This document shows, piece by piece, positions 2,653 to 47,421 of a stretch of 64,000 bases of DNA; the first letter of the stretch is position 1; each line of letters starts with the position of its first letter. Below the pieces are notes generated by a model, which was given only the letters and a program-made list of their open reading frames with translations, was not told the origin of the DNA and did not search any database. The DNA comes from a virus. Its lineage: Duplodnaviria > Caudoviricetes. The translations under genes and the position numbers were made by a program. The stretch covers positions 67,002 to 131,001 of IMG/VR virus record IMGVR_UViG_3300025163_000238, one strand, 5' to 3'.

Positions 2653-3618
2653 GTGTTAGAATTCATCCCGCTTAGAAACAAACAAGGTAAACTATTCTGG
2701 GTGCATGTGTCGGAATTCCAACCATGGAGAATCAAAGATCCCAAGACATTACGCCACATTTTGGATTTGTATTTCAGTTCCATCGCAGTGGATAAGCTAG
2801 GAAGGTCTATGCTTACCAGTGATGGTTATGCTTTTTTAAAAGAAACCCTGCCTAGTTATCTTTGGAACGAAATAAAGCGTAAGAGGTACAAAAACACTAT
2901 TGAGATCTTTAGAGAAGCATCTCACTATCCAAAGGCTATAAATCAGGTCGCTAATGCAATGGGCGATGTTTCCTACTTATCTGACTTCGCGATTAGGAAG
3001 GACTACATATTTGCCGAAGGTGGGATGCGTAGGTTATATAAAGCAGGGATTAGAATCCCATTTGAACCTTTATCCCCAAAGTGGATGGTGAGTTCACAGG
3101 TCTCAAGAGTGCCAGTAGTCTTTGGACCTAGGATAGTTAGCAAAGATATATCAGGACAGCATCTACAAAAGATATATCACAATTTACTGGTTGAGAGTGG
3201 GCAGAAGGCTTTTATTGTCAGACCAGGTCCGAGTAGTTTTATCACATACGCAAAACTGGGTGCGAATTATCCAACTAAGAGCGGTAGGAAGTCGCTTGTA
3301 AAAGAGATGCAGAGATTAATCCCCTACATACGTAAGTCTGGGCAAGAAAGGGAAACTGATATGCTCATGCGTGTTTTAGAAAGATGGAGTGAAGGGGTGG
3401 ATAATCTACAAAAGCTATATAGGGACACTTTGGAGTTGGTCAAAAAGAAGGAAATACCAGTTAGTTTGTTCCAGAGGTTTTGGTACCGAATGAGCGCCTT
3501 TGACCGTGAACTAAAGTTAGAGATAACCCCCGCTGTAAAACGTATGTTAAAAGAGGGTACTGTTTCATTCAGTGTAAAACGTTGGTTACGCGCGCCATCT
3601 AGTACGCGGTTTCAATAG
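2653..3618 (+). CDS. Hypothetical protein, divergent GNAT-like fold
   Basis: SGQKAFIVRPGPSSFITYAKLGANY matches the same pattern as 1629 and 12075. Confidence 0.45.
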   Translation: MLEFIPLRNKQGKLFWVHVSEFQPWRIKDPKTLRHILDLYFSSIAVDKLGRSMLTSDGYAFLKETLPSYLWNEIKRKRYKNTIEIFREASHYPKAINQVANAMGDVSYLSDFAIRKDYIFAEGGMRRLYKAGIRIPFEPLSPKWMVSSQVSRVPVVFGPRIVSKDISGQHLQKIYHNLLVESGQKAFIVRPGPSSFITYAKLGANYPTKSGRKSLVKEMQRLIPYIRKSGQERETDMLMRVLERWSEGVDNLQKLYRDTLELVKKKEIPVSLFQRFWYRMSAFDRELKLEITPAVKRMLKEGTVSFSVKRWLRAPSSTRFQ

Positions 3619-4722
3619 CTTTCTAGGAATCCTCTTACGATATTTTATACAAATTTCAATAGTGTTCTTGATTTCTTCTTCAAGAGTAATTGAAGGCTTG
3701 TAACCAAGGCTGTCTAAGATTCCTTTCTCTACTTTGTATAAGTCGATGTCTTCTCTTTCAACTCTTGGATTGGGATAGTACTTCATCTTTGTGAAAATAC
3801 CGAATTCCTCCATTGAGATTCTTTTAACAGTTCTAGCCAAGTCTTCCAGCCTATAGACTTCCATTAACTGATTAACTAGCCTATACTCTCCACGTTTGGG
3901 TGGGTTCTCTAATAACAAACGAAGGCACTGAATGGAGTCTCTTAAGGGCAGGAAGCCTCTCTTTTGATTCCCCGAACCATAGACGGTTAATGAGACATCT
4001 TTAGTCGCAGCTTCGGCGCAGAGTCGATTGAGGTAAGTTCCGTGCAGTTCGTCTGCACTAAAACGGGTGAACAAAAGTTCGTCTTTACCATTTATTTCCT
4101 CAGTTAATATGCCAAAGACAACACCTTGCATCACGTCAGTCACTGTTAATCCCCAGCAGTTGCACGCTAACTCCAGATAAAGAGAGCCTAAGATTTTTGT
4201 ATCGTGGTAGAAAGAGATTCCTCTACGGGGGTATGGTAGGACTTCCTTAAACGGTCCGTAGCTGATTTCCAATCCTTTTTCTGAAATAGGGATGTTAGAC
4301 GCCGCGTACTCTCCCAAAGTTCCGATTACTATTACATGTACATCCATTTTTAATTCCCGTAGAGCCCAAACAAGGTTTAAAGGTCCAATAGTGTTGGTGA
4401 ACGTGGTTTCAAAGCAGCTATCACGGTCCTTCATTGAGTATGGTGCACTAGGTTGATGTGCTAAGTATACAATAGCGTCTGGATCGACTCTACGGAGTAC
4501 GTCTAAGAAGTGAGGCCAATCAGTTACGTCACAAACTTCGAAGCCAATTGATAAGGCGTGAACCCTGTCTTCTACTGACGCAATTGGGGTTATAGACGTC
4601 GCAACCTTCCTTTTGAAGAGGTTGTCAATACCATAGACCTCGAACCCGTGTGCTACTAAATTTTGCGCTAATGCAAATCCTATAAAACCATCTATACCTG
4701 CGATTAGAACCTTACCACGCAT
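3586..4722 (-). CDS. sqdB: UDP-sulfoquinovose synthase-like NAD-dependent epimerase (SQD1/SqdB/Agl3 family)
   Basis: GIDGFIG Rossmann motif, QPSAPYSM, GTLGEY, SFYHDTK (YxxxK), WGLTVTDVMQGVVFG, LTVYGSGNQKRGFL, NPRVE: family-diagnostic motifs. Confidence 0.88.
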   Translation of the reverse strand: MRGKVLIAGIDGFIGFALAQNLVAHGFEVYGIDNLFKRKVATSITPIASVEDRVHALSIGFEVCDVTDWPHFLDVLRRVDPDAIVYLAHQPSAPYSMKDRDSCFETTFTNTIGPLNLVWALRELKMDVHVIVIGTLGEYAASNIPISEKGLEISYGPFKEVLPYPRRGISFYHDTKILGSLYLELACNCWGLTVTDVMQGVVFGILTEEINGKDELLFTRFSADELHGTYLNRLCAEAATKDVSLTVYGSGNQKRGFLPLRDSIQCLRLLLENPPKRGEYRLVNQLMEVYRLEDLARTVKRISMEEFGIFTKMKYYPNPRVEREDIDLYKVEKGILDSLGYKPSITLEEEIKNTIEICIKYRKRIPRKLLKPRTRWRA

Positions 4723-4796
4723 TTTCCTATACCTCCTAGCGGGATCCCGCGCATATTGCTAAAATATGGCGCAATAACCATATGATATGAAGCATG

Positions 4797-6200
4797 TTAT
4801 AGCTCAATCACGGCGTATCCACCCCTCCCCATGCCCTCAAAGTAGAGTCGAATCGCTTCCCTTGTGAACCACCAGGCCATTACGCAGTCATCATAGGTGC
4901 TATAGGGATAACTTAGCACTTCACGTTTCCATGCGCAAAAAGAACACTCACAACCAGGGTCATGGCTCCAATAGGGGATGTGCCACATATTATTATCTAA
5001 TTCAACTCTTAAAGACGGGATGCCAACATTGACGTAGTGCTTTTGCGTACCTGTGTAATAAGACTTTATGGGGAGCTTCCTTAGTTCACCCACCCAATCA
5101 AATAGCATTTGCTGGGTAGCGTTGGATTCAACTAGGATCACTTCTGGTTTATACTTCTCGTACTCCCTGATCAGTAATCTCGCGACTTCAGGTGCGGCTG
5201 CTTTGACTCTTATTATGTTAATCGGCCACCGCATACGTGTTTCTGCGTGGACACCCGTCGTGAATAAAACTGAGTAGTCCTTACCATGACCACCAGAGAT
5301 GTCAACTCCCATGTATTTTCTGACATATGGTTCCGTAAGGCTTGTATACTCGGGTGGGTTGGAACCGGGAGTGAGAGGCCAATCATGTCTCTGTTTGAAG
5401 CACTCTCTAGAGAATAACACAGTCTCCACCCGAATGGGCTGCATCCGGAAACCTTTTTCAAACGCCAGTGGATCATCCTTCCACTTGTCGTACAGCTTCT
5501 CCCGTGGCCATACTTGAGGCCATAAAGGATCAAAGTTCTCATTTATCTTCCATATCTTACGACACCAACCTTTCTTTCTTAGAAGGTCAGCGTATACATC
5601 TTCCTCTGCCCATGTAGTGCCGATGACCACAACTTGGTGACCTTGTGGTTCTAGTGTGTTCATCCAAACGTCAAAGAACGCTTCTTTTACCTTTCTTATC
5701 ATACCTTTTGTAGCTGCTGTCCTGTTGTCACATATGTCATCGCAAATAAGGAGGTCACTTCTTCCTCCAGTACCAGTCGCAATTATCCCTTTACCTTCTA
5801 CTGTTGCATCTCTGAGCGCCAAGCTTCTCTCCACAAAGATTCTTTCTTTAGTCCAGTACCTAGCTTTAGATGGTCTTACATGAGGGAAAATAGCACGGTA
5901 CTTTGGTGAAAAAAGCAGTGTTTGAGTGATTGCTGATAAAAGTTCCTTCGCCTTTTCGTTTGAGTTCGCAACTATCTTGATCCTGATATTAGTGTTGAGT
6001 CCGATCCTCCAGCATGGGTAGGCTATGGAGACAACCGAACTTTTCCCGTGTGCTCTTGGGGAAAGGATGAGAATTTTCCGTTTAGTTTCCAAGAGTGTAC
6101 ACCATTGTTTATGGAGGTCCGCTAGGGGGAAGTCGAAGACGAAGGTTAGGAATGATGCGAAACTTTCGCGGCACAATCTCCGGAGTGTTTTGATGTTCAC
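4797..6200 (-). CDS. terL: Terminase large subunit
   Basis: Walker A PRAHGKS, Walker B LLICDD, motif III VIGT, RNase H-like nuclease GVDISGG...DYS...DDCVMA. Confidence 0.95.
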   Translation of the reverse strand: MNIKTLRRLCRESFASFLTFVFDFPLADLHKQWCTLLETKRKILILSPRAHGKSSVVSIAYPCWRIGLNTNIRIKIVANSNEKAKELLSAITQTLLFSPKYRAIFPHVRPSKARYWTKERIFVERSLALRDATVEGKGIIATGTGGRSDLLICDDICDNRTAATKGMIRKVKEAFFDVWMNTLEPQGHQVVVIGTTWAEEDVYADLLRKKGWCRKIWKINENFDPLWPQVWPREKLYDKWKDDPLAFEKGFRMQPIRVETVLFSRECFKQRHDWPLTPGSNPPEYTSLTEPYVRKYMGVDISGGHGKDYSVLFTTGVHAETRMRWPINIIRVKAAAPEVARLLIREYEKYKPEVILVESNATQQMLFDWVGELRKLPIKSYYTGTQKHYVNVGIPSLRVELDNNMWHIPYWSHDPGCECSFCAWKREVLSYPYSTYDDCVMAWWFTREAIRLYFEGMGRGGYAVIEL

Positions 6201-6466
6201 TTTTCAAAATCCTTCAACTTCTCCTCAAATAGTTCGATCACATCGTCGGGGTCGCCTTCGCCTTTATACTTGAGTAGAAGCTCCAGTCCTTTGACTACTT
6301 CCATCCACGTTTGTGGTTTCAAATTAGGGTTATTTAAGAGCGCTTCTTTTATTCTAGTAGCGACCACATCGACGGTGCTGCCAGTACTACTTTCTTCATC
6401 GTTTGTCGACTTCTTATGTGGTGCTGACGCCAAACCTAATTCTAAGACTTTCTTTTTTCTGCCCAT
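6197..6466 (-). CDS. Putative terminase small subunit
   Basis: Small helical ORF overlapping the terL start (GTGA); call rests on position only. Confidence 0.45.
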   Translation of the reverse strand: MGRKKKVLELGLASAPHKKSTNDEESSTGSTVDVVATRIKEALLNNPNLKPQTWMEVVKGLELLLKYKGEGDPDDVIELFEEKLKDFEK

Positions 6467-7023
6467 TTAAAGTACCTCATTGGTAAAAATGCATATGGTG
6501 TTGCTAAAGAAATTTCACCTAAACTTACAGGTTCTGACTTCTTTGCGCGCTCGGTTCTTGTTACACACCTAAGATTCCCAGCACTGGTCTCCGACACTTC
6601 AACTTCATTCGTCTCTATTGAGCCCTTAGGACGAACGCGTGATTTTATTTCACCTCCGGCATAGCACCATACATCTACAACCTTGTTATCTTTTGTAACA
6701 AGACCAACTAGGTTGTTTGAGGTAAGTTTAGCTTCTTGAGGTGGGAACTTTATAGCACCTTCTTCCATGTCCTCTTCCGCTACACACACGTAGTCAGGTG
6801 AAAGGGCTTCTGTCAGTTCAGCTAACGTTGCATTTGCTGGCTGAATGTAATCAGGTTCAGTGAACAACTTTCCACGGTATATAGTAGGTTTGGACCGGAG
6901 GATGCCCTTGCTTATTCGCCTCTTAACCGTGTCGTCAGGCGTCGACACGAATAAGCTGCCAAAGGTAATAGTCCATATTCCAACTACTCGGTTGGATTTT
7001 ACTTCAATAATGAAACCTCTCAT
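6442..7023 (-). CDS. Hypothetical protein with a two-fold internal repeat
   Basis: GFIIEVKSNRVVGIW versus GLVTKDNKVVDVW; coupled to the portal stop. Confidence 0.7.
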   Translation of the reverse strand: MRGFIIEVKSNRVVGIWTITFGSLFVSTPDDTVKRRISKGILRSKPTIYRGKLFTEPDYIQPANATLAELTEALSPDYVCVAEEDMEEGAIKFPPQEAKLTSNNLVGLVTKDNKVVDVWCYAGGEIKSRVRPKGSIETNEVEVSETSAGNLRCVTRTERAKKSEPVSLGEISLATPYAFLPMRYFKWAEKRKS

Positions 7024-10000
7024 TATTCACCCTCCTTCTTTAGGAGTTTGAGGAGGTATTGTTCTTCAGGACGGCGTTTTGGCGCCACCCAGACAATCCC
7101 CACCTCCTTCTTAAACCATTCAAACGCGGCTTCCCTCCATTTACCACCTAACACAATGCCTCTTAAGTGGCGCCACACGTTAAATTTTGCGTCTTCGCTC
7201 CACCCGTGCTTATTTAGGTAAGCAAAGATTTTGTTCGCAACCGGCACCTGCTGTTCTTCCGATGTCAGTTTTGTCACAAACTTGGCGACTAACTTACGAA
7301 AGTCTTTACCCTTTGCTGCTTCTTGGAATTTGATAAACCACTTTTCACGCTTAGCAGCTTCGATGACTTTCTTTTTCTTCTCCCATGGCCTTTTCAAAGT
7401 CCATTTGACTTTCATTTCTTCTTCGAACCATTTATACGCATCTTGTCTCGGTTTACCACCAGACTGAATGTTTTTCAGCCGCCGCCATACGTCGTACATT
7501 GCATCCTTACTCCAGCCTTGTCTGTCCAAGTAGGCGAAGATTTTGTTCACTATGGGCTCACACTGTTCCTCAGGCGCAAGTCTCGCTACGAACTCAACGA
7601 CTACGTTGTGAAAGTCCTTACCTTTAGTGTCCGCTAAGAACTCGAATAACCTCTTATATTTTTCTCTTTCGCGTTTTAGAATTGCAGCAGTAACGGGCCT
7701 CTTCCGTGCTTCCTCTAATGCTTTTAGCCTCGAAAACTCCGTCATTTTATTCAGTTGCTTACTAAATCCTTGCACGTCAATTACTCCCTCTTTCTCTAAC
7801 TCCAGTAATAAGCCCTTGTCACTCCTAGACGCGGCTATAATCCTACGAATCATCATGCCAACTGTATCCCAGTTCTGTGCTTCTGTGGATGCCATAACGG
7901 TCAAAGTGGCTTCTATTGCTTCCCTTATTTGATCAGGGTTGAGCTTCAGCTTTTTCATCGCTTCAACAAACTCTTTCCACATCCCTTCGGTCTTGAGCTT
8001 AGCGAGGGGTTTTACCGCTACTGCCTTCATTAGAGATAAGAAGTAATCGTAAAGTTCGGGTGAACTGTACCGCAAGATTGTGGGCTTGGTTACAAATGTC
8101 GCGAATAATTCAGCGAAGGATTCTGCTGGGTCTGAGATAGCGTACACCCGAAGAGGGATAGATAAGTTTTTCGTAATCTCAGGTAACCTGTCTTGGAGCG
8201 GTTTGATGAGAGTTTCGCGTATATACGACGAACTAGCTAGTAAAGCTGCTTGTAGTTGGCCCTTCTGTTCCTTCTCTACTAAGTACTCAAGAAAACCAAT
8301 TAATTTTGCTACTTCTTTTTCACTCTTTGCATATAAAGTAGCCCTTTCTACAAAGGGATACAGGATCCCATAGAGGTAGACCTGCCCGTAGGTGGACCCC
8401 AGTAATGTGTTGTACATAACATGGCGTTCGAAGATGTGGTGACCTAACTCATGAAGTATTTGGTAGAGGTTGGGAGTAGCCACAATAGACGAGTTGAATG
8501 ATTCCATAAACTTCTCATACCCGCGTCCCAAGATGTACGACGCGTTAAATGTTGAAGTAGTCTTACTAAATCCAATATAGTTGAGTCCTTCCCATATAGC
8601 TGGGACTCTTAAGAAGGGGTAGGTTTCCAATAAGGCTCGGATGTACGGTTCGATCTTTTCGTCGACGTAGGGAATTCTTTTCATAATCGCATCAACACTT
8701 GTTACAGCGGGCCAAGGCCGCCCTAGTCTCTCAAGTGACTTGCCAACCCATTTTTTGTAAGAACTTGGTGTCCAAAGCGTTGATGCTAGGAAGTCTTCAA
8801 ACGCTACTTTACCAGGTATTTCCCTATGAGGCGTGAAGACAACCGCGCGAAACATGTGTTTAAAGAACAACATCGGATCCACATACGCTTCTTTAGGAAA
8901 GTCGAGTGGTAAGGTGAACTTCTCAAAAGGCGCCAAGTTCCCAAACTTCCACGCCTCTTCTAATTTAATGTACGGTTCTTTGCCGAGTTCTATACCAACC
9001 TTTCTGAACACTTTCCACAAGCGAGTTTCCCACACATCCTCACGAGCCTTTTGCATTATAGCTGCAAGCTGGGCTGTGATGGGTGAGTATGGGTCGAGAA
9101 AGTTGTTCCTAAACATTAGGTTCTCAACAACTGCGTCAACAAACGCACTTCTTACTGTTGAATGTGTTGCTTTTGCGGGGATGTACAGCGTGTTTTCCAG
9201 CGGGTTATAATATGGTGTCTCAGCCGCTGTGGTTGTTATTTTGTTAAACAAAGCAAAGTAAGCGGGTTCACGTAACCGAGGTTCTTTTAGTAAAATATCC
9301 CGGATTTTCTTATCGACATGATCAAGCGCGCCTATTGCCAGCAGCTCGGACTTGGGTAAGTGTAGGCCTCTTACTGGGATGACTTTTTGGAGCCAATCTA
9401 CTTCAAACCTGGTCTCCTCTATATCGACAGGAATTAACACGCACCGACATTTACCGTTACATCTTACTCCCCTAGCTTTGTAAGGCTCACCACAGCCCGG
9501 CCACCTACCTATAAACTCAAGTTCAGTTTGCGAGAAGACTTTACCGTGCATCTCCCGACAGTCTTGACACATGTTCTCATCGCCAGTGCCAACCCATTTG
9601 TAATAGATAGTTTTGCCTTTTAGGGTAAAAAATCGAGTTACAGCCTGGAGAGGTAAGTGTGTAAGGTAACCAACGAACGCACCCGCCGCCAGGAAGCTTA
9701 AGAGTAACGTACGTAAGTCGTCTCTTACTTTATCCCAATCTCTCTTTTCTGCGTCTTTCTTGACTTCTTGATATTTTGAAGTCCACTGACGAGTCATATA
9801 GTCGTTAATCTTCTTTAATGAACGTACAGTTTCAGCGTCGACATAATCTTTGTCATAAGAAGGCCAGTACCTATCTACCCAGTAGTACCCTGTCTGGAGA
9901 GCGTCAGGGGTCACATCTTTCAAGGCGTTCTGTATTTGCGTGTAGAACCATTTGTCCAATGGATCGAGTGTAGGGGTAACGTCTGCTCTGACTAGCATGA

Positions 10001-11348
10001 ACTTTTCGCACAGTTTCTCTGTGAGCTCCTCATGTACTTTCCTGAGCTTTTTGGTTAGCTTCATTGAAAGAGTCATCCGCTTGGATACAAAGTCAGCTGT
10101 CTTAGGGTCACTAATCAGGTTCAAGTTACGTACGCTTTCTAGATATTCTAACTCGGCAGCCCTTTTTATCTCTTGAAACGGGTCCTCTGATTCAGCTCGA
10201 GCTGGGGTCACAACTATGGGTTCTTGGGTGGGGGGTTTTGCTTCCCCACTAGGAGGCTTCGTCCCACCAACAGGTGTGAGACCTTGTGGTTGTAAGATAG
10301 TGAGTGTGTCACCACCTTGAGCGGGCGGTAAGTGCAGGAATGCCCTTGCTTCGTTAGGTGAAATAAGCCCAGACCTCGCAGCTAGTAGCAACTCTGATAT
10401 AGTATGAGCGGGGGGTATTTTGAATCTTATATTGATGCCGTAAGGGCGGAGAAAGTGATTGAGTTGATCTTGGATAGCTGTTACAATATGGGGTGTGTAG
10501 GTCGAATACAACAAAGGTCGCGCGGTTTGCCTGCCTAAACTATCTCCAGGATTGGAGAAACCAAACGCTGAACGTACCAGCCAATCCATTCGGTCTAAGA
10601 AGGAGGTTATGAGTTGAACGTCTAGTTGTTTTACTATGTCAATCCACTCGCCTCTACCAGCACCCCAAAGAATTGGCACTTTAGTTGACTGTTCTTGAAC
10701 TAAGTTGGTTAAGTCTGCCTGTAGTTTTTCTATTACCTCCTTTCCTACGTCCTCTTGCACTACGAAAACACCAATTGGTGGCCTTCCTTTCTTGTGCATC
10801 CGCTGGAGTGAGTAAACCAAATTAGTGATCTCGTAAGTCAGAGACTCAATGATAGATAAGGATCCAATAGTGTAGGTCCTTTTGACCCCAGCTATAACAA
10901 TAACCTCATCTGGTTTGAATTCAAATTTTTTACCATTGACCTCCTGAATGTATCCTAAGAGAACCCCATCTTTTCTAAACACAGGCGCAAACGTGCCCGC
11001 GTCTCTTGCGGTAAAACTTTTTAGCTGAGATCCAAGCGTGAATACAGGTAATATAACACCTTTGTTGACGACAAGCATGTCAACAACACATGCTTGGAGA
11101 ACTTCCTTAAATGTCTCACCTGTGGGACCTACTCCCTCAAAAAGAGCGGAGATTACTCCCTTCTTAAATGGATGAGACACTTTCACTTCAAAAGGGAGCC
11201 CAGCGATCGTCGTCGCAATTTGGTCAACACACCTTCTTATTGTGTTAGTGTCCCTATATATCTGTCTCAAGACCGAAGCTTGTAAAGAAGTTGTGTATGA
11301 CCACTGGATTGATGTGTCAAAAGACGTCACTCCCTTCAACTTATCCAT
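7023..11348 (-). CDS. Portal protein fused to a MuF/gp7 head-morphogenesis domain, tandem zincin metallopeptidase domains and C-terminal repeats
   Basis: HK97-like portal N-part (IRRCVDQIATTIAGLP, FKPDEVI, ISPNEARAFL); MuF Cys motif KWVGTGDENMCQDC...CRCVLIP; HELGH at 8439-8453 with downstream ESFAELF. Confidence 0.88.
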   Translation of the reverse strand: MDKLKGVTSFDTSIQWSYTTSLQASVLRQIYRDTNTIRRCVDQIATTIAGLPFEVKVSHPFKKGVISALFEGVGPTGETFKEVLQACVVDMLVVNKGVILPVFTLGSQLKSFTARDAGTFAPVFRKDGVLLGYIQEVNGKKFEFKPDEVIVIAGVKRTYTIGSLSIIESLTYEITNLVYSLQRMHKKGRPPIGVFVVQEDVGKEVIEKLQADLTNLVQEQSTKVPILWGAGRGEWIDIVKQLDVQLITSFLDRMDWLVRSAFGFSNPGDSLGRQTARPLLYSTYTPHIVTAIQDQLNHFLRPYGINIRFKIPPAHTISELLLAARSGLISPNEARAFLHLPPAQGGDTLTILQPQGLTPVGGTKPPSGEAKPPTQEPIVVTPARAESEDPFQEIKRAAELEYLESVRNLNLISDPKTADFVSKRMTLSMKLTKKLRKVHEELTEKLCEKFMLVRADVTPTLDPLDKWFYTQIQNALKDVTPDALQTGYYWVDRYWPSYDKDYVDAETVRSLKKINDYMTRQWTSKYQEVKKDAEKRDWDKVRDDLRTLLLSFLAAGAFVGYLTHLPLQAVTRFFTLKGKTIYYKWVGTGDENMCQDCREMHGKVFSQTELEFIGRWPGCGEPYKARGVRCNGKCRCVLIPVDIEETRFEVDWLQKVIPVRGLHLPKSELLAIGALDHVDKKIRDILLKEPRLREPAYFALFNKITTTAAETPYYNPLENTLYIPAKATHSTVRSAFVDAVVENLMFRNNFLDPYSPITAQLAAIMQKAREDVWETRLWKVFRKVGIELGKEPYIKLEEAWKFGNLAPFEKFTLPLDFPKEAYVDPMLFFKHMFRAVVFTPHREIPGKVAFEDFLASTLWTPSSYKKWVGKSLERLGRPWPAVTSVDAIMKRIPYVDEKIEPYIRALLETYPFLRVPAIWEGLNYIGFSKTTSTFNASYILGRGYEKFMESFNSSIVATPNLYQILHELGHHIFERHVMYNTLLGSTYGQVYLYGILYPFVERATLYAKSEKEVAKLIGFLEYLVEKEQKGQLQAALLASSSYIRETLIKPLQDRLPEITKNLSIPLRVYAISDPAESFAELFATFVTKPTILRYSSPELYDYFLSLMKAVAVKPLAKLKTEGMWKEFVEAMKKLKLNPDQIREAIEATLTVMASTEAQNWDTVGMMIRRIIAASRSDKGLLLELEKEGVIDVQGFSKQLNKMTEFSRLKALEEARKRPVTAAILKREREKYKRLFEFLADTKGKDFHNVVVEFVARLAPEEQCEPIVNKIFAYLDRQGWSKDAMYDVWRRLKNIQSGGKPRQDAYKWFEEEMKVKWTLKRPWEKKKKVIEAAKREKWFIKFQEAAKGKDFRKLVAKFVTKLTSEEQQVPVANKIFAYLNKHGWSEDAKFNVWRHLRGIVLGGKWREAAFEWFKKEVGIVWVAPKRRPEEQYLLKLLKKEGE
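7089..7625 (-). repeat. Two 75-aa repeats at the portal-fusion C-terminus
   Basis: KGKDF...EEQ..P..NKIFAYL...GWS.DA...VWR.L..I..GGK.R..A..WF..E at 7401-7625 and 7089-7313. Confidence 0.9.
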
Positions 11349-16448: not shown

Positions 16449-17244
16449 CCCAATTTCGTTAGCATTTGATTTTGTCTACGCGGGTGTAACGGTTAGCGAT
16501 GTTGAGGACCCTGTGGTTGAAGTGTACTCCTTCGCTCAGGCGCTGATGACCGCTGCTGCCTTAACATGGGGTGGGGCTCATTATGAAGCACGTGTTCAAG
16601 CACCACAGGAGTTGGGTGTTTACGTAGCAGTAGCTCACGGTAGGTATAATGGTGACTATATAACAGCCGCCTCACACGAAGCTCTTGAAGTAGTTTCATA
16701 CGGAGTAGAAGCGCACCACGCACTTATAACTCTCAATGAAGTTAAAGAGTACTTGGAGTTAACAGACTTTAGCGAAGACGCGTTTCTGCGACTTCTTACC
16801 GAGGCGTGCATTAGCAGTGTGTTGAACTACCTTCACATTACAATCGGGCCGCAAACAACAAAGGAGACCTTTCCTGTGTCTGACTGTGCTTCTTGGAGCT
16901 TAAACTATTACCCCGTCATTTCAGTGGAACATATTAGTGTAGATGGTGTTGAGTTAAGCAGTACAGATTACACATTAAACGCTAATACGGGTACGATTTG
17001 GTTCAATGAGTTAGTAAGTGGGGTGCTAGAAGTTGAGTATACATACGGGCTCACATCTATACCATATGATATGAAGCTCGCGTGTCTCAAGCTAGCAGCT
17101 GTGCTTTACAACCTACGAAACACAGAAGGCTATTCATCTCGAAGGTTGTTAAGCGTCGCTGAGACATATTTAGCGAGCAGTAAGGCTGATGTCTTTCACG
17201 AGATACGTTCTTTACTTGCTCCCTATAAACGGGTATCACGTTAG
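16426..17244 (+). CDS. Head-tail adaptor (gp6/gp15-like) with an N-terminal extra domain
   Basis: LITLNEVKEYL...D..L, VEYTYG...IPYDMKLACLKL, LLAPYKR. Confidence 0.85.
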   Translation: MRQVLPNSPISLAFDFVYAGVTVSDVEDPVVEVYSFAQALMTAAALTWGGAHYEARVQAPQELGVYVAVAHGRYNGDYITAASHEALEVVSYGVEAHHALITLNEVKEYLELTDFSEDAFLRLLTEACISSVLNYLHITIGPQTTKETFPVSDCASWSLNYYPVISVEHISVDGVELSSTDYTLNANTGTIWFNELVSGVLEVEYTYGLTSIPYDMKLACLKLAAVLYNLRNTEGYSSRRLLSVAETYLASSKADVFHEIRSLLAPYKRVSR

Positions 17245-17994
17245 AAGTTGGTTTTGGTCAACATATCCCCAATTGCGTTGATACATTCTCCACTTTTCTC
17301 TCGGCCACCGGAGCATGTCATGAACAATAAGTCTCTTGGGGTTGACAAAAGTGCTAATGTTTGGATGATATAGGTGGTGAAGTGTTATATCTGCGGCTTC
17401 GACTCGGTACCCAAATGCTTCTAGTTTTATCCAAAACGCGTTATCTTCACCATACTTACCGTAAAAATCTTTCTCTGGCATCCCGCCCACGTGGTTCATT
17501 ATAGTCTTAGTGATCCACATAGCACCGCCAGCTGCACCCATCTTCTCTGGCGTGGTGCTGCGTATGTAAGGGCCTCCGAGTGACTCTGATTTAAGAAATC
17601 GTTCTGTTGCCTCTTTTGACATGTACAAAATACGATTCCACGCTGCAGCTGGAGGACGCGTCTGGGCCAATATGCTTTGATAATTGGGCGGGTAAATGAG
17701 ATCAGCGTCGGTGAGTAATACGTGTTCAAACGTGGCTAGCTCTTTCACACCTACGTTAAAGGCCCAAGCTCTGTTAAAGGGGTGAAAAGTGAAAACCTTT
17801 AGATACCGAAAGGGCTTACGGATCCATTCACGGAAGGCGTTAATGTGGTCATGAATGTACGCTGTGGGGCCTGTCTCAACGATACATACCTCACATTGAG
17901 CTGAACGGGCTAGGGATTTCACACAGAAAGTCAGGAGTGGAAGTCGTAGTGGGTGGTGTTCATATGGTATAACAATAGAGATTGGGATTGACAC
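17236..17994 (-). CDS. Glycosyltransferase, GT-A fold (GT2/GT7-like)
   Basis: ISIVIPY, FNRAWAFNVG, TDAD (DxD), GGMPE..YGKYGED, HLYH; SD favours GTG 17994. Confidence 0.88.
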   Translation of the reverse strand: MSIPISIVIPYEHHPLRLPLLTFCVKSLARSAQCEVCIVETGPTAYIHDHINAFREWIRKPFRYLKVFTFHPFNRAWAFNVGVKELATFEHVLLTDADLIYPPNYQSILAQTRPPAAAWNRILYMSKEATERFLKSESLGGPYIRSTTPEKMGAAGGAMWITKTIMNHVGGMPEKDFYGKYGEDNAFWIKLEAFGYRVEAADITLHHLYHPNISTFVNPKRLIVHDMLRWPREKWRMYQRNWGYVDQNQLLT

Positions 17995-18022
17995 GCTTCC
18001 TCCTTTGATATAGACTACACCT

Positions 18023-18051
18023 ATGATACCAAATTCGTAAGACATTGACAA
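18023..18051 (-). promoter_or_regulatory. sigma70-like promoter for the glycosyltransferase
   Basis: TTGTCA-17-TATCAT on the minus strand. Confidence 0.65.
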
Positions 18052-18949: not shown

Positions 18950-20197
18950 ATGGCACGAATCATAATGTGCCCTGATGACAAGCCAGGGACGTGGATTACA
19001 TTAAAAACAGGGAGACGTGTCTGTATTCACTACATCAAGAAAAATGGTGGATGGGAAAAGATTTCGGCTGTCATACCAGCAGCGAAAGTTTTGGGTGGCG
19101 TTACAGTAGCAGCTATAGCTGCTGCGATCCTGCGGAGAAAGCCACCATTGATTAAAGACATTCGAAAAGTTGCTGTGATTCACGGAAGAACTGAGTTTGC
19201 ACTTAATAAGTGGTACCAGACTATAATGAGCGCGTGGATGGGGATGAAATCAATTCCTCCTGTAGTTTCTAGTGCAAAGCCACCAAAGTTACTAAAATCC
19301 GCGGCTTTAATATACACACCACACCCCGGGGCTATGGCAGTGAAGGCTGAGAAGATTATTGGCCATAGAGAAATGATGAAGCTGATTAGCGATAAGTTTA
19401 AGTTCTCACGGTTATTTCACAAGCATCCGGAACGTCATTTAGATACCTATTTAGCGTCTAACTTCAAGAATGTGGATGAGATGAGGAATTACTTCGCTTC
19501 ATCAGGTAAGTCTTTTATACTGAAACCAAGATTTGGGTCACTTGGGACTCTTAAAGACTTCCCTAACGGTGAGTGGTCAAACAAAGCAATCGAAAAGTAT
19601 ATCAAGTCTTACGGTGCTGATGACGTGGTTGTACAGGAACTGGTACCTATTGCAAACGAGTTTCGGGTGCATGTAGTAAACGGTAAGGTTTACGCTGTAA
19701 TGCACAGGTGGGGTCCTCCTGGAGGACTTGGGAAGGTATGGCGTGAAAACATTCCGTTTGGGAATGTTGTGTTCCCAGTATGGCATAAAGATGACATCGT
19801 AAAATTCACAGAGAAGGCAATTCAACCTTGGGGGAAGAAACTTCATGCTGGGCTGGATGTCATTCAACTCCCAGATGGGAGCTATAAAATCTTGGAAGCA
19901 AATCCTCTTCCTGCTTCTTTCTTACACCCCTATGTATCCAGAAAGTTCCACAGAGCGGTAACTGGTGTCTGGACCGCGGACATACAAGCACTAGCTGCAG
20001 TAGGGGGCGTGGTTGGCGCCTGGGCTACAATTTCAGGAACAAGGGAACTTGTGAACAAGAGGAAGAGGGATTATCCTGAAATAGTGACTTTCAAAGGGAA
20101 TAAAGGTTTTTGGGTAACATTAGAAACAGGCAAGAAAATCTTTATTCCTCTAAAGTACGTAAGCGATTACATCAGAGAGAGGTGGTTCACCTGGTGA
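18950..20197 (+). CDS. RimK-like ATP-grasp ligase flanked by two tag motifs and two hydrophobic helices
   Basis: DKFK, FILKPRFGSLG, VVQELV, EFRVHVVNGKV, GLDVI, ILEAN. Confidence 0.82.
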   Translation: MARIIMCPDDKPGTWITLKTGRRVCIHYIKKNGGWEKISAVIPAAKVLGGVTVAAIAAAILRRKPPLIKDIRKVAVIHGRTEFALNKWYQTIMSAWMGMKSIPPVVSSAKPPKLLKSAALIYTPHPGAMAVKAEKIIGHREMMKLISDKFKFSRLFHKHPERHLDTYLASNFKNVDEMRNYFASSGKSFILKPRFGSLGTLKDFPNGEWSNKAIEKYIKSYGADDVVVQELVPIANEFRVHVVNGKVYAVMHRWGPPGGLGKVWRENIPFGNVVFPVWHKDDIVKFTEKAIQPWGKKLHAGLDVIQLPDGSYKILEANPLPASFLHPYVSRKFHRAVTGVWTADIQALAAVGGVVGAWATISGTRELVNKRKRDYPEIVTFKGNKGFWVTLETGKKIFIPLKYVSDYIRERWFTW

Positions 20198-27222: not shown

Positions 27223-29115
27223 ATGAAGACAACTATAATCACTTTTGATGAACAGAAGGGTGCTTTGATACAACACTTGTTGCAATGGAAAGACTTCCCC
27301 AAAATAGTGGCATGTGACGAATCCGATCGAACTTTGTACAGGGAGTTGGGGTGTGAAACAGTTCCACGTGGTATGAATTTCCTTGAAACGCTTAAGCGCC
27401 TTGTTTCAGCGGTTAACACTGACACATTTACTTTTATCTATCCGGGATGCTTTGTGAATCCTAATTACTTCATGGAAGCGGCTAACATTCTGAGGGCACC
27501 CAATGTAGGCTTATTAGCACCGAGTTTGGACGTTGCGGCCGGCCCACAAGCGACTAGCCAACATGTTCAGTTCAGACAGTCAGTAAGAGTAGCACCATGG
27601 TGTTTTAGTGGGCGTACCTCACAAATCAAGTCGAGCTTAAACACCAAACGTCTCTTACCAGGCTTCGATGTAGTCCCCCACATTTGTACTACTTTCGCTC
27701 TAGAAGGTTTGTTTCAGGTTGTGTGCTCCAAGTATATCCTTCAAGTGCCTGTAAGCTTGAAGGATCGTGTAAAAGAGGCTGATTTGGGACATTACTTACT
27801 AACCCAGCCGGTTAAGCCACTCAACCCTGTACTCGTTTACACGGGGCACAGTGGGGTCCCACCCCACGCGTCAACATTATTCTCAGAAGTAATAAAAGCA
27901 CCGCTTGAGTCAGTGGAGCTGCCACGTGACGCACTGGTGTTCGTATTAAATGAGGGAGAGGATTTTGACCCTTCAGTAACTAAAGAGAAGATCAAAAGAT
28001 TGTGTACACCCGTTGACCCAGCAACGCTTGCTTACTACGCGTGTGTCGTTAACGTGTGGAATGGGTACAAAGTTGGGAATCTTGATTGGTCTCTCAGAGC
28101 CTTCCGGGGTGGTACCTCAAGGTTGAACTCCATGGTACAATCAAACCCAGAATTAATACCTGAGGACGCAAAACGAACTTCGGGGATTGTCATTCACAGA
28201 AAGCTGAAGGACTTGCCAAGGGCGACACTAACAGTTCAGCCCCTTACCTCTTCCTCTCTCACAATAGCTACTATTATGAAGAACGAGAAGGATCGGCTTG
28301 CGGCTTATTTGAGTTTAACTCTCCCATTTGCTGACGAAGTACTATTGGTTGATACGGGCTCACAAGACAAGTCGGATAAGTACGCTAGAAAGTTCGGCGC
28401 AAGGGTTATAAACTTCAAGTTTAGAGATCACTTCGCTGAAGCACGAAACATGTATTTAAAGAAGTGTAAAACTAAATGGTTGCTCCACCTAGACGTAGAT
28501 GAGGTGACAGACTTCAAGAAAGTAATGAACTTAATTTTATCGAACCTTCCATCGGTAGATGGAGTTCAACTTCAGGTGTTGAACGTCATGAAACGTACTC
28601 GCTCGTATGTACATCAAGACGCGGTCCGCATCATCAAGAACCCGAACTCGTGGTACTATACAGGAAGAGTTCACGAAACTGTAGAAGAGTGCGCCGCAAA
28701 ACACTCTAAATCTTTAATCAGGGCATCTGGGTTAGTCATATATCATTTCGGTTACCTCTCCTCCAATGTCCCCAGCAAGTTAGAATACTATCGGAAGCTT
28801 AACGAATTACAAATGCAGGAAAACCCATACGACTGCCGACCTTACTTTAACCTCGCCCTACATGAGTTGAATCGCCAGGAGTTAACTGATGAACAAATTG
28901 ATAAAGTTATTAGGATGTTGAAGAGAAGTATAGAATTACACAGCACTTTCGTGCTCGCGAAATATGAGTTAAGCCGGTGTTACTGTTTAAAGGCTCTCCA
29001 ACTTATAGAGGACATCATGCAGCTTGCACCTCGTGATCATCCCTTATATAAAGAGGTGAGTGAGGTGTACGCTCTCTTGAAGAACTACACACGGCGTATT
29101 ATAGTTGAAGAATGA
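27223..29115 (+). CDS. GT2 glycosyltransferase with C-terminal TPR and degenerate N-terminal GT-like domains
   Basis: IATIMKNE, VDTGSQD, HFAEARN, LHLDVDE, GRVHE, IYHFGY, then TPR-like helices. Confidence 0.88.
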   Translation: MKTTIITFDEQKGALIQHLLQWKDFPKIVACDESDRTLYRELGCETVPRGMNFLETLKRLVSAVNTDTFTFIYPGCFVNPNYFMEAANILRAPNVGLLAPSLDVAAGPQATSQHVQFRQSVRVAPWCFSGRTSQIKSSLNTKRLLPGFDVVPHICTTFALEGLFQVVCSKYILQVPVSLKDRVKEADLGHYLLTQPVKPLNPVLVYTGHSGVPPHASTLFSEVIKAPLESVELPRDALVFVLNEGEDFDPSVTKEKIKRLCTPVDPATLAYYACVVNVWNGYKVGNLDWSLRAFRGGTSRLNSMVQSNPELIPEDAKRTSGIVIHRKLKDLPRATLTVQPLTSSSLTIATIMKNEKDRLAAYLSLTLPFADEVLLVDTGSQDKSDKYARKFGARVINFKFRDHFAEARNMYLKKCKTKWLLHLDVDEVTDFKKVMNLILSNLPSVDGVQLQVLNVMKRTRSYVHQDAVRIIKNPNSWYYTGRVHETVEECAAKHSKSLIRASGLVIYHFGYLSSNVPSKLEYYRKLNELQMQENPYDCRPYFNLALHELNRQELTDEQIDKVIRMLKRSIELHSTFVLAKYELSRCYCLKALQLIEDIMQLAPRDHPLYKEVSEVYALLKNYTRRIIVEE

Positions 29116-43489: not shown

Positions 43490-44214
43490 TGCCTGCTAGA
43501 AGTCAAATCCAAGTTGGGATCTCAAAGACTTGTGCTGGGGTTGAAGTAAAGTCCTTCACGCTTGAGTTAGACTCGGAAAAAAACAGAGGTCAATCCACAT
43601 TCCCGCCTGGGGAATTCGCTTATGTTCGGTGCTTTCCTGCGCTGCTCAAACCAGAGTTAAGAGTAAGTATGGGCACTGCGAGACTTGAAGCGGAAGGCTT
43701 ACCATTATCACAGGAAGACGAGATCACTTTCGCGCGGAGCAAGAGTGCTAATTTACGGTACCCTTATCACTCCAACTTTGAATGGGAGTGGGTAGGACGT
43801 GAAGGGCCCCCACCAAAAGTAACTACTGAGGGTACGATCTTATTAAGCGAAGAGTTTTCAGGAATCCTTAAAGTTAAATATCAGACCTTATTCGATCGAA
43901 TTGAAGTGCATTGTACAGAAGAAGCGTCGGTGCTCTTAGAAGCTATAAAGGAAGATAGATACGGCCACATCACCCTAAGGTGGAAGCCAGAAACCCGCGA
44001 AGTGTACCTGACCGTGAGAGATGCTTGCACTCGTACAATAATCCCAAGTGTCTTTGTGTGGGTTGATGGTAAGTACATAGGAACAACAGACTTACAAGGA
44101 AGGATTTATTTGGGGAAGTTAAAGGTTGGGACACATTCGTTAAAAATGTCAAAGTATGGATACCAGGACAGCGACTCAGACACAATTGCGAATGACTCTT
44201 TTACTGTGTCATGA
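43489..44214 (+). CDS. Tail protein with C-terminal PEGA/carboxypeptidase-regulatory-like domain
   Basis: ELDSEKNRGQSTF; VWVDGKYIGTT...GTHSLKMSKYGY. Confidence 0.7.
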   Translation: MPARSQIQVGISKTCAGVEVKSFTLELDSEKNRGQSTFPPGEFAYVRCFPALLKPELRVSMGTARLEAEGLPLSQEDEITFARSKSANLRYPYHSNFEWEWVGREGPPPKVTTEGTILLSEEFSGILKVKYQTLFDRIEVHCTEEASVLLEAIKEDRYGHITLRWKPETREVYLTVRDACTRTIIPSVFVWVDGKYIGTTDLQGRIYLGKLKVGTHSLKMSKYGYQDSDSDTIANDSFTVS

Positions 44215-45821
44215 CGGAACTAATTGCATACTTATGCCCACACCCTTGGAGACCACGTGGGTTGTGTAATCCCACGAACGTCAAAGCTTCTACGTCTTCT
44301 AGGACAGAAGGTGATAAAACCGAAGTTGAAACCTTCCTATGCCCTGAAGGTTTCGAGTGCAACCGAACCGAAGTGAAAGCATATTTACTTCCAAAAGATA
44401 GAAACGCAATTGACTGCCTACTCTGCGTTCCTACGTGTACTGACTCAGATGTTGAACCAACACCAGAAATCGCGAACGAAAGCTTTTGTATGAAGATGTT
44501 GGATTTACACAATGACGCTAGAGTGACACACCCAGATGAATGCCCCCCTGCCGAGTGTAGGCACTTGGAGTTAGATAAAGCCTTGTGTGAGATAGCGTTC
44601 TGGCACGCGCGCGACATGGTCGAAAATGACTACTTCCGGCACACTGATAGTTTTGGCAGGGATCATACTGCGAGACTAGAGTATTTCGGATATAAAAAAG
44701 TACCCACAAGCGAGAATATAGCCTGTAAGGAATATGTCAACACATTCAAAGGAACTTCCGCTGTTGCTATAGACTTGTTTGAGGGGTGGATGTCTAGCTC
44801 TGGACATCGTGGTAATATTATGAACCCGGCGTTTAATAGGGTAGGTTTCGGAATAGCGTATTGGATGTGGACAGATAACGTAGGAAATGTATATAAGAAG
44901 TATATAGCCGTCGCGATCTTCGCGAGTGATGATGGTCCATTCGAGAGCGCGGTTGTAGCTAAGCCGGAGCTACCATGTACAGGCGAATGTGTCGAAAAGA
45001 TTCACTGGCATCAGGATTATAAATTGGTTAAAGTATGGTATGAAGACGAATGGATCGAGTACAAAGAACCCAAACCGGTAATTATCACTCAGATAAAGCT
45101 CCCTCAAATTTGTGCTCTCTACAAAATACGGTTTCAATTCGAGCTAGGACCATGTTACGTTGAGTACTATCTAGACCAAGAAAAGAGCCCCATCCCAAGT
45201 GATAATAGGTTGGAGTTTGCGTGGAATAACAAAGAAGCGATAGGCAACTCATATATACAGGATAGGGTGTGGACAATACGTTGGAATTTCGCTGACAGTC
45301 AGCATTGCTTCTATCCTGGGAGCTATATGATAGTTTATGGGTGGCTAAAAGACTATGAGGACGAATGCAATCCTTTCATAATAGGATTTGGTTGGTTTGA
45401 GACCCACTGCTGGACGAGTGGTATAATACGAGGATGTGGCTTGCTGGACTCAGATGGTAACGTAATAGAAGGCGGTATAGGAGTGACAATGAAGGATCGC
45501 TGGGTTGGGGACTCGCGTTTGCATTGGTTAGTGGACTTCAAAGGGAGCTACTTCTGGTTAAGATGTAGTGACTCTTATAGGTATAACATAGGCGAACGTG
45601 GGGTTATCCTAAAGGGTGGCACTAGCAAGTCCTTAGACCAAAAAGGGAACCTTGTGTTAGAACCAGCGTGTCGTGGTCCAGTTCCGTGGGGTGCAGACTA
45701 CCCGTTCGTCTACAAAGCACCTGACGGAAGAATGTTTTTCGACCCAATAAGTGATAGCAACGTAGCGTACACTTTGGATCGTGGGTCAGATATATTACTT
45801 CCCGTAAGATTCTGGTGGTAA
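44211..45821 (+). CDS. Cys-rich protein with a CAP/SCP domain
   Basis: HNDAR, A.WHARDM...DYFRH, SENIA, WMSSSGHRGNIMNP...VGFG. Confidence 0.85.
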   Translation: MTELIAYLCPHPWRPRGLCNPTNVKASTSSRTEGDKTEVETFLCPEGFECNRTEVKAYLLPKDRNAIDCLLCVPTCTDSDVEPTPEIANESFCMKMLDLHNDARVTHPDECPPAECRHLELDKALCEIAFWHARDMVENDYFRHTDSFGRDHTARLEYFGYKKVPTSENIACKEYVNTFKGTSAVAIDLFEGWMSSSGHRGNIMNPAFNRVGFGIAYWMWTDNVGNVYKKYIAVAIFASDDGPFESAVVAKPELPCTGECVEKIHWHQDYKLVKVWYEDEWIEYKEPKPVIITQIKLPQICALYKIRFQFELGPCYVEYYLDQEKSPIPSDNRLEFAWNNKEAIGNSYIQDRVWTIRWNFADSQHCFYPGSYMIVYGWLKDYEDECNPFIIGFGWFETHCWTSGIIRGCGLLDSDGNVIEGGIGVTMKDRWVGDSRLHWLVDFKGSYFWLRCSDSYRYNIGERGVILKGGTSKSLDQKGNLVLEPACRGPVPWGADYPFVYKAPDGRMFFDPISDSNVAYTLDRGSDILLPVRFWW

Positions 45822-45822
45822 G

Positions 45823-47421
45823 ATGTCAGAGTATAATATAACAAACGCAGACAGTATGGTTGGTAGGTTCCATAAATGGGCGAGGATCCTCAGCCTGTGT
45901 GAGCCCGGTGATAAAGCGAAAGTGGAAATCCTGGACGGTGGGCTTAACCCAACAGGTGAAATTTACGATAATGTTTTGTTTCATTATCATTGCACACCCA
46001 CTACCTTAGAAATAGGTGGAACGTCCGAGCACGCCGCTTCAGCGTTTGACATTGGAGATATAGTTGTATTACGGTTTGACGAAGGCACTCCCAGGATAGT
46101 CTCTAGGAAGTTTGGTTTAGCTGAATGTTCCGAAATAAGTGGCTTTCTGGAAGTAAGACGTGGTGGACTACCAACACGCTGTGTAAAGCCCGTATTCCTT
46201 CTAGGCTATTACTATGGCAACCCGCGGTTTTTACTGTACGACATCTACAACGAAAGCTTAGAGGATCGGGAGGCACAAATAGTCGCGGTGAGTCATCACG
46301 CAGCTGTAATGCATAAGGGTCTGATGTACGTTTTAGGTGGATCAACATCAAGTGGTGTAACGAGTACTTACTACGCATATAACCCCCAAACAGACATTTG
46401 GCGGATTTTGGGATTTATGCCAGGTGTACGGTTCAACCACTCAGCGGCTGTGTGGGGGAATAGTATATACGTTCTAGGTGGAACATGCCCTAACCCCAAC
46501 CCACCACCAACTTACTTGGTCAACAACACATTCTGGCGATGCAGACTTGACAATATAGCGGTAGAACATTTCACGCTTCACAACCCCATCTTCACAACTT
46601 ATCTACAACATTCTCCCATTATTCCAAGAACTTTAACCGTCAAATACACTAGAAGTGACAGAACATACACGCTTTGGGACACTGGTGAGGGGTTAAGTGA
46701 CACTCGAACTGATTCCTCAATTCAGACCTCTATAGACTTAGTTACCGCGGGGGGTTCAACGAAGCTCACTTCATATGGATGGTATTCCGATGAACGAGCA
46801 GGTGCTGGATGGGTTCGGAATTATGACAGGGAGTTTTACCTCAATTTATTCTACACCCCTAAACCGGTCGACATCGAAGTGAAATACGAGTACGCAACGT
46901 GGTCCAGCATGCCAAATGCACCTTTTTGTGTCACAGGCCACACAGCAGTAGTGATAGGGGACAAAATGTACGTGTACGGTGGTGAGCGGGAAGACGCTCC
47001 TTGTGGTGAAGGTAACCCACCAGTACGTGACAACAAACTATATTCGTTTGATTTCCTCACTAACACATGGGCTCAACTACAAGACTGCCCGTTCCACCCA
47101 AACGGTTGCGTAGGCCATATAGGACTAACTGACGGTGAGAGAATGTACATCTTCGGGGGATACGATGGTTCCAGTTGTAGAGATGAACTTCTCATGTACG
47201 ATGGAAGCTGGCACCTTATTAGCCACGGGCCTCGCGGTCTTTCAGACGCTGCTGGCGTAATTTACGGGAGTAAAATCTACATCTTCGGCGGAATCTATCA
47301 AGAAGGCGGTTCTTACTTAGTGAGTGACAAAATGTACGTCTACGACCTTGAGTCCGGTACTTGGTCTACTTATGACTTTACAGATATGTGCTATCACACA
47401 GCCGCTGTACGCGCCGCTTGA
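45823..47421 (+). CDS. Kelch-repeat beta-propeller tail protein
   Basis: Repeated H.A...G.MY[VI][LF]GG...Y.Y...W units. Confidence 0.88.
   Translation: MSEYNITNADSMVGRFHKWARILSLCEPGDKAKVEILDGGLNPTGEIYDNVLFHYHCTPTTLEIGGTSEHAASAFDIGDIVVLRFDEGTPRIVSRKFGLAECSEISGFLEVRRGGLPTRCVKPVFLLGYYYGNPRFLLYDIYNESLEDREAQIVAVSHHAAVMHKGLMYVLGGSTSSGVTSTYYAYNPQTDIWRILGFMPGVRFNHSAAVWGNSIYVLGGTCPNPNPPPTYLVNNTFWRCRLDNIAVEHFTLHNPIFTTYLQHSPIIPRTLTVKYTRSDRTYTLWDTGEGLSDTRTDSSIQTSIDLVTAGGSTKLTSYGWYSDERAGAGWVRNYDREFYLNLFYTPKPVDIEVKYEYATWSSMPNAPFCVTGHTAVVIGDKMYVYGGEREDAPCGEGNPPVRDNKLYSFDFLTNTWAQLQDCPFHPNGCVGHIGLTDGERMYIFGGYDGSSCRDELLMYDGSWHLISHGPRGLSDAAGVIYGSKIYIFGGIYQEGGSYLVSDKMYVYDLESGTWSTYDFTDMCYHTAAVRAA

Follow-up and report, generated by a model that had tools for sequence, protein, structure and literature searches.

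The question raised by this locus is why a tailed phage should carry, directly behind the gene for its terminase large subunit (TerL), a gene of the family that makes uridine diphosphate (UDP)-sulfoquinovose. Sulfoquinovose is a lipid headgroup in phototrophs and a sugar of N-glycans in Sulfolobus. The locus lies in a stretch of 64,000 nucleotides, hereafter the window (positions 67,002 to 131,001 of the IMG/VR virus record IMGVR_UViG_3300025163_000238; Duplodnaviria, Caudoviricetes), which is the second half of a 131,001-bp record classed as 'provirus' and estimated to be 91% complete. From the first half of the record, 47 of 134 open reading frames (ORFs), the larger ones, were scanned. The gene under study is the following:

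3586..4722, minus strand: short-chain dehydrogenase/reductase (SDR) of the SQD1/SqdB/Agl3 family, putative UDP-sulfoquinovose synthase, 378 amino acids (basis: homology, the NCBIfam model NF041015, a structural model, and the ratio of nonsynonymous to synonymous substitution rates, dN/dS)

By analogy with SQD1 and Agl3, this gene on balance probably encodes a functional SDR of the UDP-sulfoquinovose synthase family, whose product would be made late and used by phage-encoded glycosyltransferases of family 2 (GT2), most likely on virion proteins. An initial annotation of the window had placed the ORF at the right coordinates and read its motifs exactly (GTLGEY, residues 134–139, and FYHDTK, residues 171–176), but not its strand: the gene is on the minus strand, and the plus-strand reading of 3586-4722 is full of stops. 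The viral origin of the gene is upheld.

Membership of the SQD1/SqdB/Agl3 Family

Judged by its sequence, the phage gene is a true member of the SQD1/SqdB/Agl3 family, as the initial annotation had proposed from motifs. A search of the PDB aligned residues 4–377 with Arabidopsis SQD1, the enzyme of plastid sulfolipid synthesis (PDB 1qrr, 1i24, and 1i2b), at a phmmer E value of 5e-75, compared with 1.7e-8 for the next SDR; the homology thus extends over the full length of the protein. NF041015 (UDP-sulfoquinovose synthase) is the sole strong NCBIfam match, with 385.6 bits versus 50 for the next family. The AlphaFold2 model built from a 30-sequence alignment (mean predicted local distance difference test score, pLDDT, 88.5; predicted template-modelling score, pTM, 0.90) has a predicted fold that matches 1qrr with template-modelling (TM) scores of 0.94/0.91 and a root-mean-square deviation of 1.8 Å (35% identity over 385 columns), and the next-best fold is that of UDP-glucose 4-epimerase (TM 0.67–0.70).

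The phylogenetic tree started from 172 sequences, namely the query, 13 database proteins, 78 of 80 viral loci (L028 and L081 were left out, being without a qualifying ORF), and 80 genome loci. Reduction at 80% identity left 112, and with an outgroup of five ordinary SDRs taken from genome-locus flanks the set came to 117 rows; a quick search under LG+G4 was run without bootstrap, with support from the Shimodaira–Hasegawa-like approximate likelihood ratio test (SH-aLRT). The SQD1 family forms one clade against the five SDRs (SH-aLRT 100, stem 1.44), and the phage protein lies inside it and does not group with ordinary epimerases. Within the clade it is basal, beside P0006, L040, and P0007/P0009 and outside all sampled cellular clades, a placement that may reflect long-branch attraction given the quick LG+G4 search without bootstrap.

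The catalytic positions expected from the motifs are present. SQD1 Thr145, Tyr182, His183, and Lys186 (1qrr numbering) align with phage T135, Y172, H173, and K176 in the phmmer alignment, and the phage protein also keeps the GxxGxxG motif (as GIDGFIG), E138, Y139, S170, and T175. The motif Tyr, His, and Lys are invariant in 28 other aligned proteins. By analogy with SQD1 and Agl3, the NAD-dependent enzyme would oxidize UDP-glucose at C4 and eliminate water to give a 4-keto-5,6-ene; sulfite would then be added at C6 and C4 reduced again, yielding UDP-sulfoquinovose.

Selection and Integrity of the Gene

The synthase gene is a long-resident, selected phage gene, as indicated by its low dN/dS, intact contigs, and phage-like GC content and codon usage. 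The same block (portal, two small genes, terL, synthase, two convergent genes) is present at 91–99% protein identity in L087, a locus found among genome contigs. Between the window and L087, the synthase (94% identical) shows 53 synonymous and 12 nonsynonymous differences (dN/dS 0.06); the corresponding values are 36.5 and 3.5 for terL (dN/dS 0.02) and 63.5 and 31.5 for the convergent gene of 321 amino acids (dN/dS 0.11). Across contigs of four sequencing runs covering 3400-6400, the only differences are substitutions and, in a single contig, a 30-nt skip that keeps the frame. The GC content of the synthase gene is 0.424, against 0.449 ± 0.019 for the phage, and its codon usage is the eighth closest to the mean among 27 genes.

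Position Behind terL

The synthase gene is directly downstream of terL on the same strand, as had been recognized at the outset, and contigs from three of the four runs span the terL–synthase junction. The surrounding features are as follows:

4723..4796, minus strand: spacer of 74 nt between terL and the synthase gene (from the sequence)
4797..6200, minus strand: TerL (phrog_38, E 4e-62; NF033889, E 6e-28, under the cut-off of that model)
6197..7023, minus strand: two small genes (89 and 193 amino acids) between portal and terL, overlapping their neighbours; no family match
7023..11348, minus strand: portal fusion of 1441 amino acids, consisting of portal, Mu F-like part, and long extension (phrog_12, E 3e-22; phrog_2662, E 4e-15; PF04233)

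The portal fusion is the first gene of this leftward block, and the two small genes are 97–99% conserved in L087. About 800 residues of the portal extension are without a family match. Because the upstream genes are co-oriented and the genes downstream (two unannotated ones, one of which overlaps the 3′ end of the synthase gene by 33 nt) are convergent, the synthase is the last gene of the portal-to-terL block. It has its own ribosome-binding site (AGGAGG, about 8 nt ahead of the ATG), and a consensus scan of the terL–synthase gap gave no promoter-like or terminator-like site. The position at the end of this block suggests late expression, in which the synthase would probably be made together with the packaging proteins.

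The convergent protein of 321 amino acids gave only sub-0.9 matches, to unnamed clusters, in an atlas search, and PADLOC gave no match for the synthase, the two convergent genes, the ATP-grasp-like protein described below, or either of the glycosyltransferases considered next.

Candidate Users of the Sugar Donor

Bacterial sqdB products usually work with SqdX or SqdD lipid transferases. The absence of both, recognized by the initial annotation for the window, extends to all of the 131-kb record (about 91% complete), where neither a PF00534 match (the GT4-type transferase SqdX/SQD2) nor a PF01501 match (the GT8-type transferase SqdD) is present; in control scans, PF00534 was found in 14 of 14 genomes and PF01501 in 5 of 14. 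In this respect the phage gene differs from both SQD1, which has an SQD2/SqdX partner, and bacterial SqdB. As the record holds no GT4-type or GT8-type transferase and no 3′-phosphoadenosine 5′-phosphosulfate (PAPS) reductase, a self-contained sulfolipid pathway is excluded. Two GT2 glycosyltransferases that the initial annotation had missed are encoded in the window:

17236..18051, minus strand: GT271, soluble GT2/Glyco_transf_7C glycosyltransferase of 271 amino acids (PF02709, PF00535)
27223..29115, plus strand: GT630, protein of 630 amino acids with a C-terminal GT2 domain (PF00535, E 1e-10)

Of the two, GT271, located between the adaptor and holin genes, is the better candidate for using the sugar donor, and it shares 32% identity (E 3e-33) with a transferase that directly follows the synthase in two other viral contigs (L061 and L064). 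For GT630, the second candidate, the nearest match of the GT2 domain is GmaR (E 4.5e-17), followed by SunS (1e-6) and a ThuS-like protein (6.5e-5). GmaR and SunS/ThuS-type proteins glycosylate flagellin and peptides. A hydropathy scan, in which the holin as a control gave many membrane segments, found none in GT271 or GT630, which favours a cytoplasmic acceptor such as virion proteins. The operon position of the synthase and the presence of two soluble GT2s elsewhere in the structural module are the grounds on which a use in late-stage glycosylation is suggested; one or both enzymes would transfer the sugar to a cytoplasmic target, most likely virion proteins. A model for this use is provided by mycobacteriophages Che8 and Rita, in which phage-encoded GT2-type transferases decorate capsid proteins, as cited in PMC11256854 (Freeman et al., 2023).

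The UDP-glucose and sulfite would be drawn from the host, which for sulfite follows from the lack of any phage-encoded gene for its supply. The neighbours of the synthase are terL and two unannotated genes, with no adjoining PAPS reductase, adenosine 5′-phosphosulfate (APS) kinase, or glycosyltransferase. As for donor synthesis in Che8 and Rita, we know of no report that these phages make their own sugar donor or use a sulfonated sugar.

Viral and Cellular Relatives

Viral copies of this gene are already on record, a point overlooked by the initial annotation, and the phage gene is a divergent new member of a known group. An alignment-based scan of IMG/VR detected 109 contigs encoding a relative, of which the best 80 are at 34–44% identity; a single-protein scan found only an SDR of 22% identity, so that the alignment-based scan was needed. 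Among 5.8 billion proteins, the best non-self relatives of the phage synthase are 46–48% identical. No SQD1-type gene was found in 50,697 GenBank phage records (INPHARED), which gave three partial SDR matches in Sulfolobus filamentous viruses. Homologues of cellular origin occur widely among Chloroflexota, Thermodesulfobacteriota, and archaea from sediment.

The context of 27 of the best 80 viral loci, chosen across the tree, was surveyed over three genes on each side (150 proteins). This comparison, which the initial annotation had suggested, placed a glycosyltransferase within three genes of the synthase in 12 of the 27 loci. The most complete arrangement is that at L035:9200-12487, in a 41-kb viral genome with direct terminal repeats and a terminase, where an APS kinase, an ORF of 148 amino acids, the synthase, a PAPS reductase, and a GT2 are encoded; this virus seems equipped to provide the sulfite for the sulfo-sugar itself. 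A PAPS reductase also adjoins the synthase at L059. These two loci and the 12 loci with a nearby glycosyltransferase give wider support to the idea that viral copies make a sulfo-sugar. Linkage to sulfite supply is the exception, given that BLAST detected PAPS-reductase-like ORFs in the fetched flanks of just 3 of 80 viral loci and in those of none of the 80 genome loci. At L084, a UDP-glucose dehydrogenase, a GT1, and a sulfotransferase are near the synthase, and at L056 the synthase is embedded in a NeuB/NeuC/cytidylyltransferase set. Direct terminal repeats are present in three of five records checked, those with L035, L040, and L059.

The remaining context is different. In a viral-only clade of 28 rows, the synthase lies among replication genes (PolA-UDG fusion, ParB-methylase, dCMP deaminase, AAA_24, DUF3987) in five of seven sampled members (L020, L029, L033, L038, and L051), with no glycosyltransferase within three genes; a nucleic-acid-related use of the synthase in this clade is conceivable.

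The copy described in the literature is a putative UDP-sulfoquinovose synthase of a Mu-like virus from euxinic water of the Cariaco Basin, for which its authors propose a function in N-glycosylation of the host (Mara et al., 2020; PMC7785012). A search of the available literature found no report on viral UDP-sulfoquinovose synthase beyond that study, and no experimental work. The phage gene resembles that copy and those of IMG/VR in being virus-borne and associated with anoxic sulfidic settings. It differs in being at most 44% identical to any of the best 80 of the 109 IMG/VR copies, in its location behind terL (the sampled viral copies are in sugar operons or replication modules), and, relative to cassettes of the L035 type, in having no PAPS reductase, APS kinase, or glycosyltransferase beside the synthase.

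Divergence of the Active Site and Possible Alternative Functions

Several findings weigh against synthesis of UDP-sulfoquinovose for the phage GT2s, and the first group concerns the protein itself. Among 13 proteins scored with NF041015, the phage protein is the lowest (386 bits), followed by its 98% identical twin (393), its nearest relatives P0006/P0008 (435–438), named cyanobacterial and Chloroflexi proteins (540–551), and Sulfolobales proteins (677–684). It falls under the equivalog cut-off of 575 bits; this is not disqualifying, because the cut-off is tuned to Sulfolobales, whose proteins alone pass, and the named cyanobacterial and Chloroflexi homologues fail too. Y13F, N109T, F234L, and H327D replace residues that all 28 other aligned proteins share, AAS stands in place of the near-invariant GTP loop that follows GEY, and P147S, G242D, and P244S are further departures; the departing loops are low-confidence parts of the model (pLDDT 59–66). 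Private residues S222 and H227 (near window positions 4059 and 4044) stand where L087, P0005, and the family have Asp and Phe. Each of these two changes requires at least two base changes, and they are five codons apart.

For Agl3 of Sulfolobus acidocaldarius, a member of the same family whose sugar serves protein glycosylation (the use proposed here for the phage), a mutational study describes H95A, R101A, M145A, Y182A, and K186A as inactive, S180A, T185A, E147A, and Y148A as impaired, and T144A as active (Zolghadr et al., 2015; PMC4388408). The phage protein keeps the equivalents of E147/Y148, S180, Y182, T185, and K186 and departs at three columns, at each of which the alanine mutant of Agl3 is inactive:

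Agl3 His95: Tyr86 in the phage protein; 25 His and 3 Asn in the 28 others
Agl3 EQR Arg: Pro91 in the phage protein; 22 Pro, 4 Arg, and 2 Ala in the 28 others
Agl3 Met145: Leu136 in the phage protein; 26 Met and 2 Leu in the 28 others

From SQD1 it is distinguished by the lack of the EQRSAP Arg, by Leu at the equivalent of Met146, and by the altered GTP loop. Relative to bacterial SqdB (cyanobacteria, Chloroflexota, and others), to which the phage protein is 42–45% identical over 99% of its length, Pro at the EQR-Arg column is a likeness. Since that Arg is missing in 24 of the 28 other members, not every Agl3-essential residue is family-defining.

The second group concerns the genome. The record holds no PAPS reductase or other sulfite-supply gene, the two glycosyltransferase genes are 12.5 and 22.5 kb from the synthase, and the GT271 family is common in phages generally, including those without a synthase.

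Given this divergence, a changed enzyme product is conceivable from the sequence. A neofunctionalized member would retain SDR oxidation and dehydration but yield some other 6-modified sugar nucleotide, perhaps by halting at the 4-keto-5,6-ene or 4-keto-6-deoxy stage or by adding a different sulfur nucleophile available in sulfidic sediment. Such an enzyme is unlikely, though with a real chance of being correct, because it would account for the substitutions at the His95 and Met145 columns and in the active-site loop, the lowest NF041015 score, the long basal branch in the tree, and the lack of a sulfite-supply gene; the labelling of the runs that hold this DNA as vent or sediment metagenomes is also in its favour, as is the formation of the 5,6-ene by Agl3 without sulfite, which has been described (Zolghadr et al., 2015; PMC4388408). 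Retention of Y-H-x-x-K with the family-specific His, the E-Y pair, S170, and T175 argues against a changed product, however, and so does a predicted fold almost superimposable on SQD1. Moreover, Leu for Met is conservative and common to P0006/P0008, which have Asn at the His95 column, and the EQR Arg is dispensed with by most of the family.

Synthesis of UDP-sulfoquinovose for use by the phage GT2s can also be set against an auxiliary metabolic role, in which the sugar donor would be delivered to host transferases for sulfolipid, S-layer, or wall-polymer glycans, for example in superinfection exclusion or host fitness. We give this role a small chance. A role of this kind is what Mara et al. 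(2020; PMC7785012) propose for a viral copy; no dedicated transferase adjoins the synthase, the record is classed as 'provirus', and cellular homologues are widespread in sediment lineages. Yet no tyrosine integrase was found in the 131-kb record, the gene belongs to a packaging block and does not occupy a position typical of lysogeny genes or morons, the record lacks an SqdX/SqdD-type gene, and the phage has two soluble GT2s of its own, one of the type that directly follows the synthase in other viruses.

It is most improbable that the gene is a decaying or inactive passenger, or an ordinary nucleotide-sugar epimerase/dehydratase mislabelled by motif: the NCBIfam score below the cut-off, the PHROGs label of just 'nucleotide-sugar epimerase', and the non-conservative S222 and H227 would fit, but decay was rejected on the dN/dS of 0.06 and the lack of any frameshifting indel listed in the contigs of four runs, and an ordinary epimerase on the 10^67-fold E-value gap to ordinary SDRs, the TM scores of 0.94 to SQD1 and 0.67 to GalE, and monophyly with the SQD1 family.

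Virus and Host

The window encodes a full tailed-phage structural and lysis set, including a prohead protease, an HK97-type capsid protein, an adaptor, a tape measure protein of 2257 amino acids, tail proteins, a Phage_holin_4_1 holin, and a Peptidase_M15 endolysin. The first half of the record contains replication and nucleotide genes, among them the anaerobic ribonucleotide reductase NrdD with its activase, together with an SLT transglycosylase, a sigma-70 region-4 protein, Ku, and a QueD/radical-SAM pair. No host flank was seen in the record. From NrdD and the lysis genes, the host appears to be an anaerobic bacterium with peptidoglycan, from vent or marine sediment, and it would supply the substrates of the synthase. 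TerL and the major capsid protein are at most 29% identical to those of isolated phages, whose hosts are mixed.

An identical TerL protein is present on 13 contigs, the longest being 152,866 bp, and the listing for the terL–synthase stretch gives 20 metagenome runs, with hydrothermal vent, sediment, or marine labels. These runs may represent one campaign, since they are mostly of the same year, and one may be the source sample; among the 22 runs listed, none that holds the stretch is an RNA run. L087 is a 29.9-kb contig binned in a metagenome-assembled genome titled 'uncultured archaeon', which is discounted as probable mis-binning because the presence of holin, M15 endolysin, and SLT genes suggests that the host is a bacterium. 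The 241-kb and 173-kb records L007 and L008 have the protease–capsid–adaptor block in common with this phage (43%, 46%, and 24% identity), and their synthase belongs to another clade and is about 5 kb upstream of that block.

Further genes of the record are unusual in their own right. A QueD-like 6-pyruvoyl-tetrahydropterin synthase interrupted by a LAGLIDADG endonuclease domain (L003:18449-19771, minus strand) and a radical-SAM protein (L004:828-1502, minus strand), both in the first half, form a pair that hints at 7-deazaguanine DNA modification and at an intein or homing element. The early region also encodes a SIS-domain sugar-phosphate isomerase-like protein of 192 amino acids (L004:1514-2092, minus strand), a further sugar-metabolism gene of the phage, and a metallopeptidase-like protein of 446 amino acids (L003:16895-18235, minus strand) with weak sub-cut-off matches to zinc-metallopeptidases (ATLF domain, Peptidase_M90). 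At window positions 58177-60180 (plus strand) is a protein of 667 amino acids whose N-terminus resembles a phage protease (phrog_20754) and whose residues 309–616 weakly match an intein splicing domain. An ATP-grasp-like protein of 415 amino acids directly follows the holin (18950-20197, plus strand), and the tail region (44211-47421 and 48663-53810, plus strand) encodes CAP-domain, Kelch-repeat, and 1715-amino-acid NHL/InlB-B-repeat proteins; these are unusual virion-associated domains.

Implications

A more specific and tentative proposal, which we regard as possible but doubtful, is that the phage coats its capsid or tail proteins with sulfoquinovose by means of its own synthase and soluble protein-type GT2s; the particle would then bear a permanently anionic, carbon-sulfonated glycan. 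In a bolder variant, the altered active-site loop would open the enzyme to a reduced sulfur nucleophile supplied by sulfidic sediment. To our knowledge, no virus particle has been shown to carry sulfoquinovose, and no virus has been shown to make or use it.

Viral use of sulfoquinovose has so far been a matter of metagenomic inference, to which this phage adds a selected, divergent copy linked to packaging genes. With 109 IMG/VR contigs, viral copies are fairly common, and they occur in distinct contexts, namely sugar operons, sulfite-supply cassettes, and replication modules. If the phage does decorate its particle or its host with a sulfonated sugar, this would be a new viral surface chemistry, and viruses would contribute on a small scale to organosulfur cycling in anoxic sediments.

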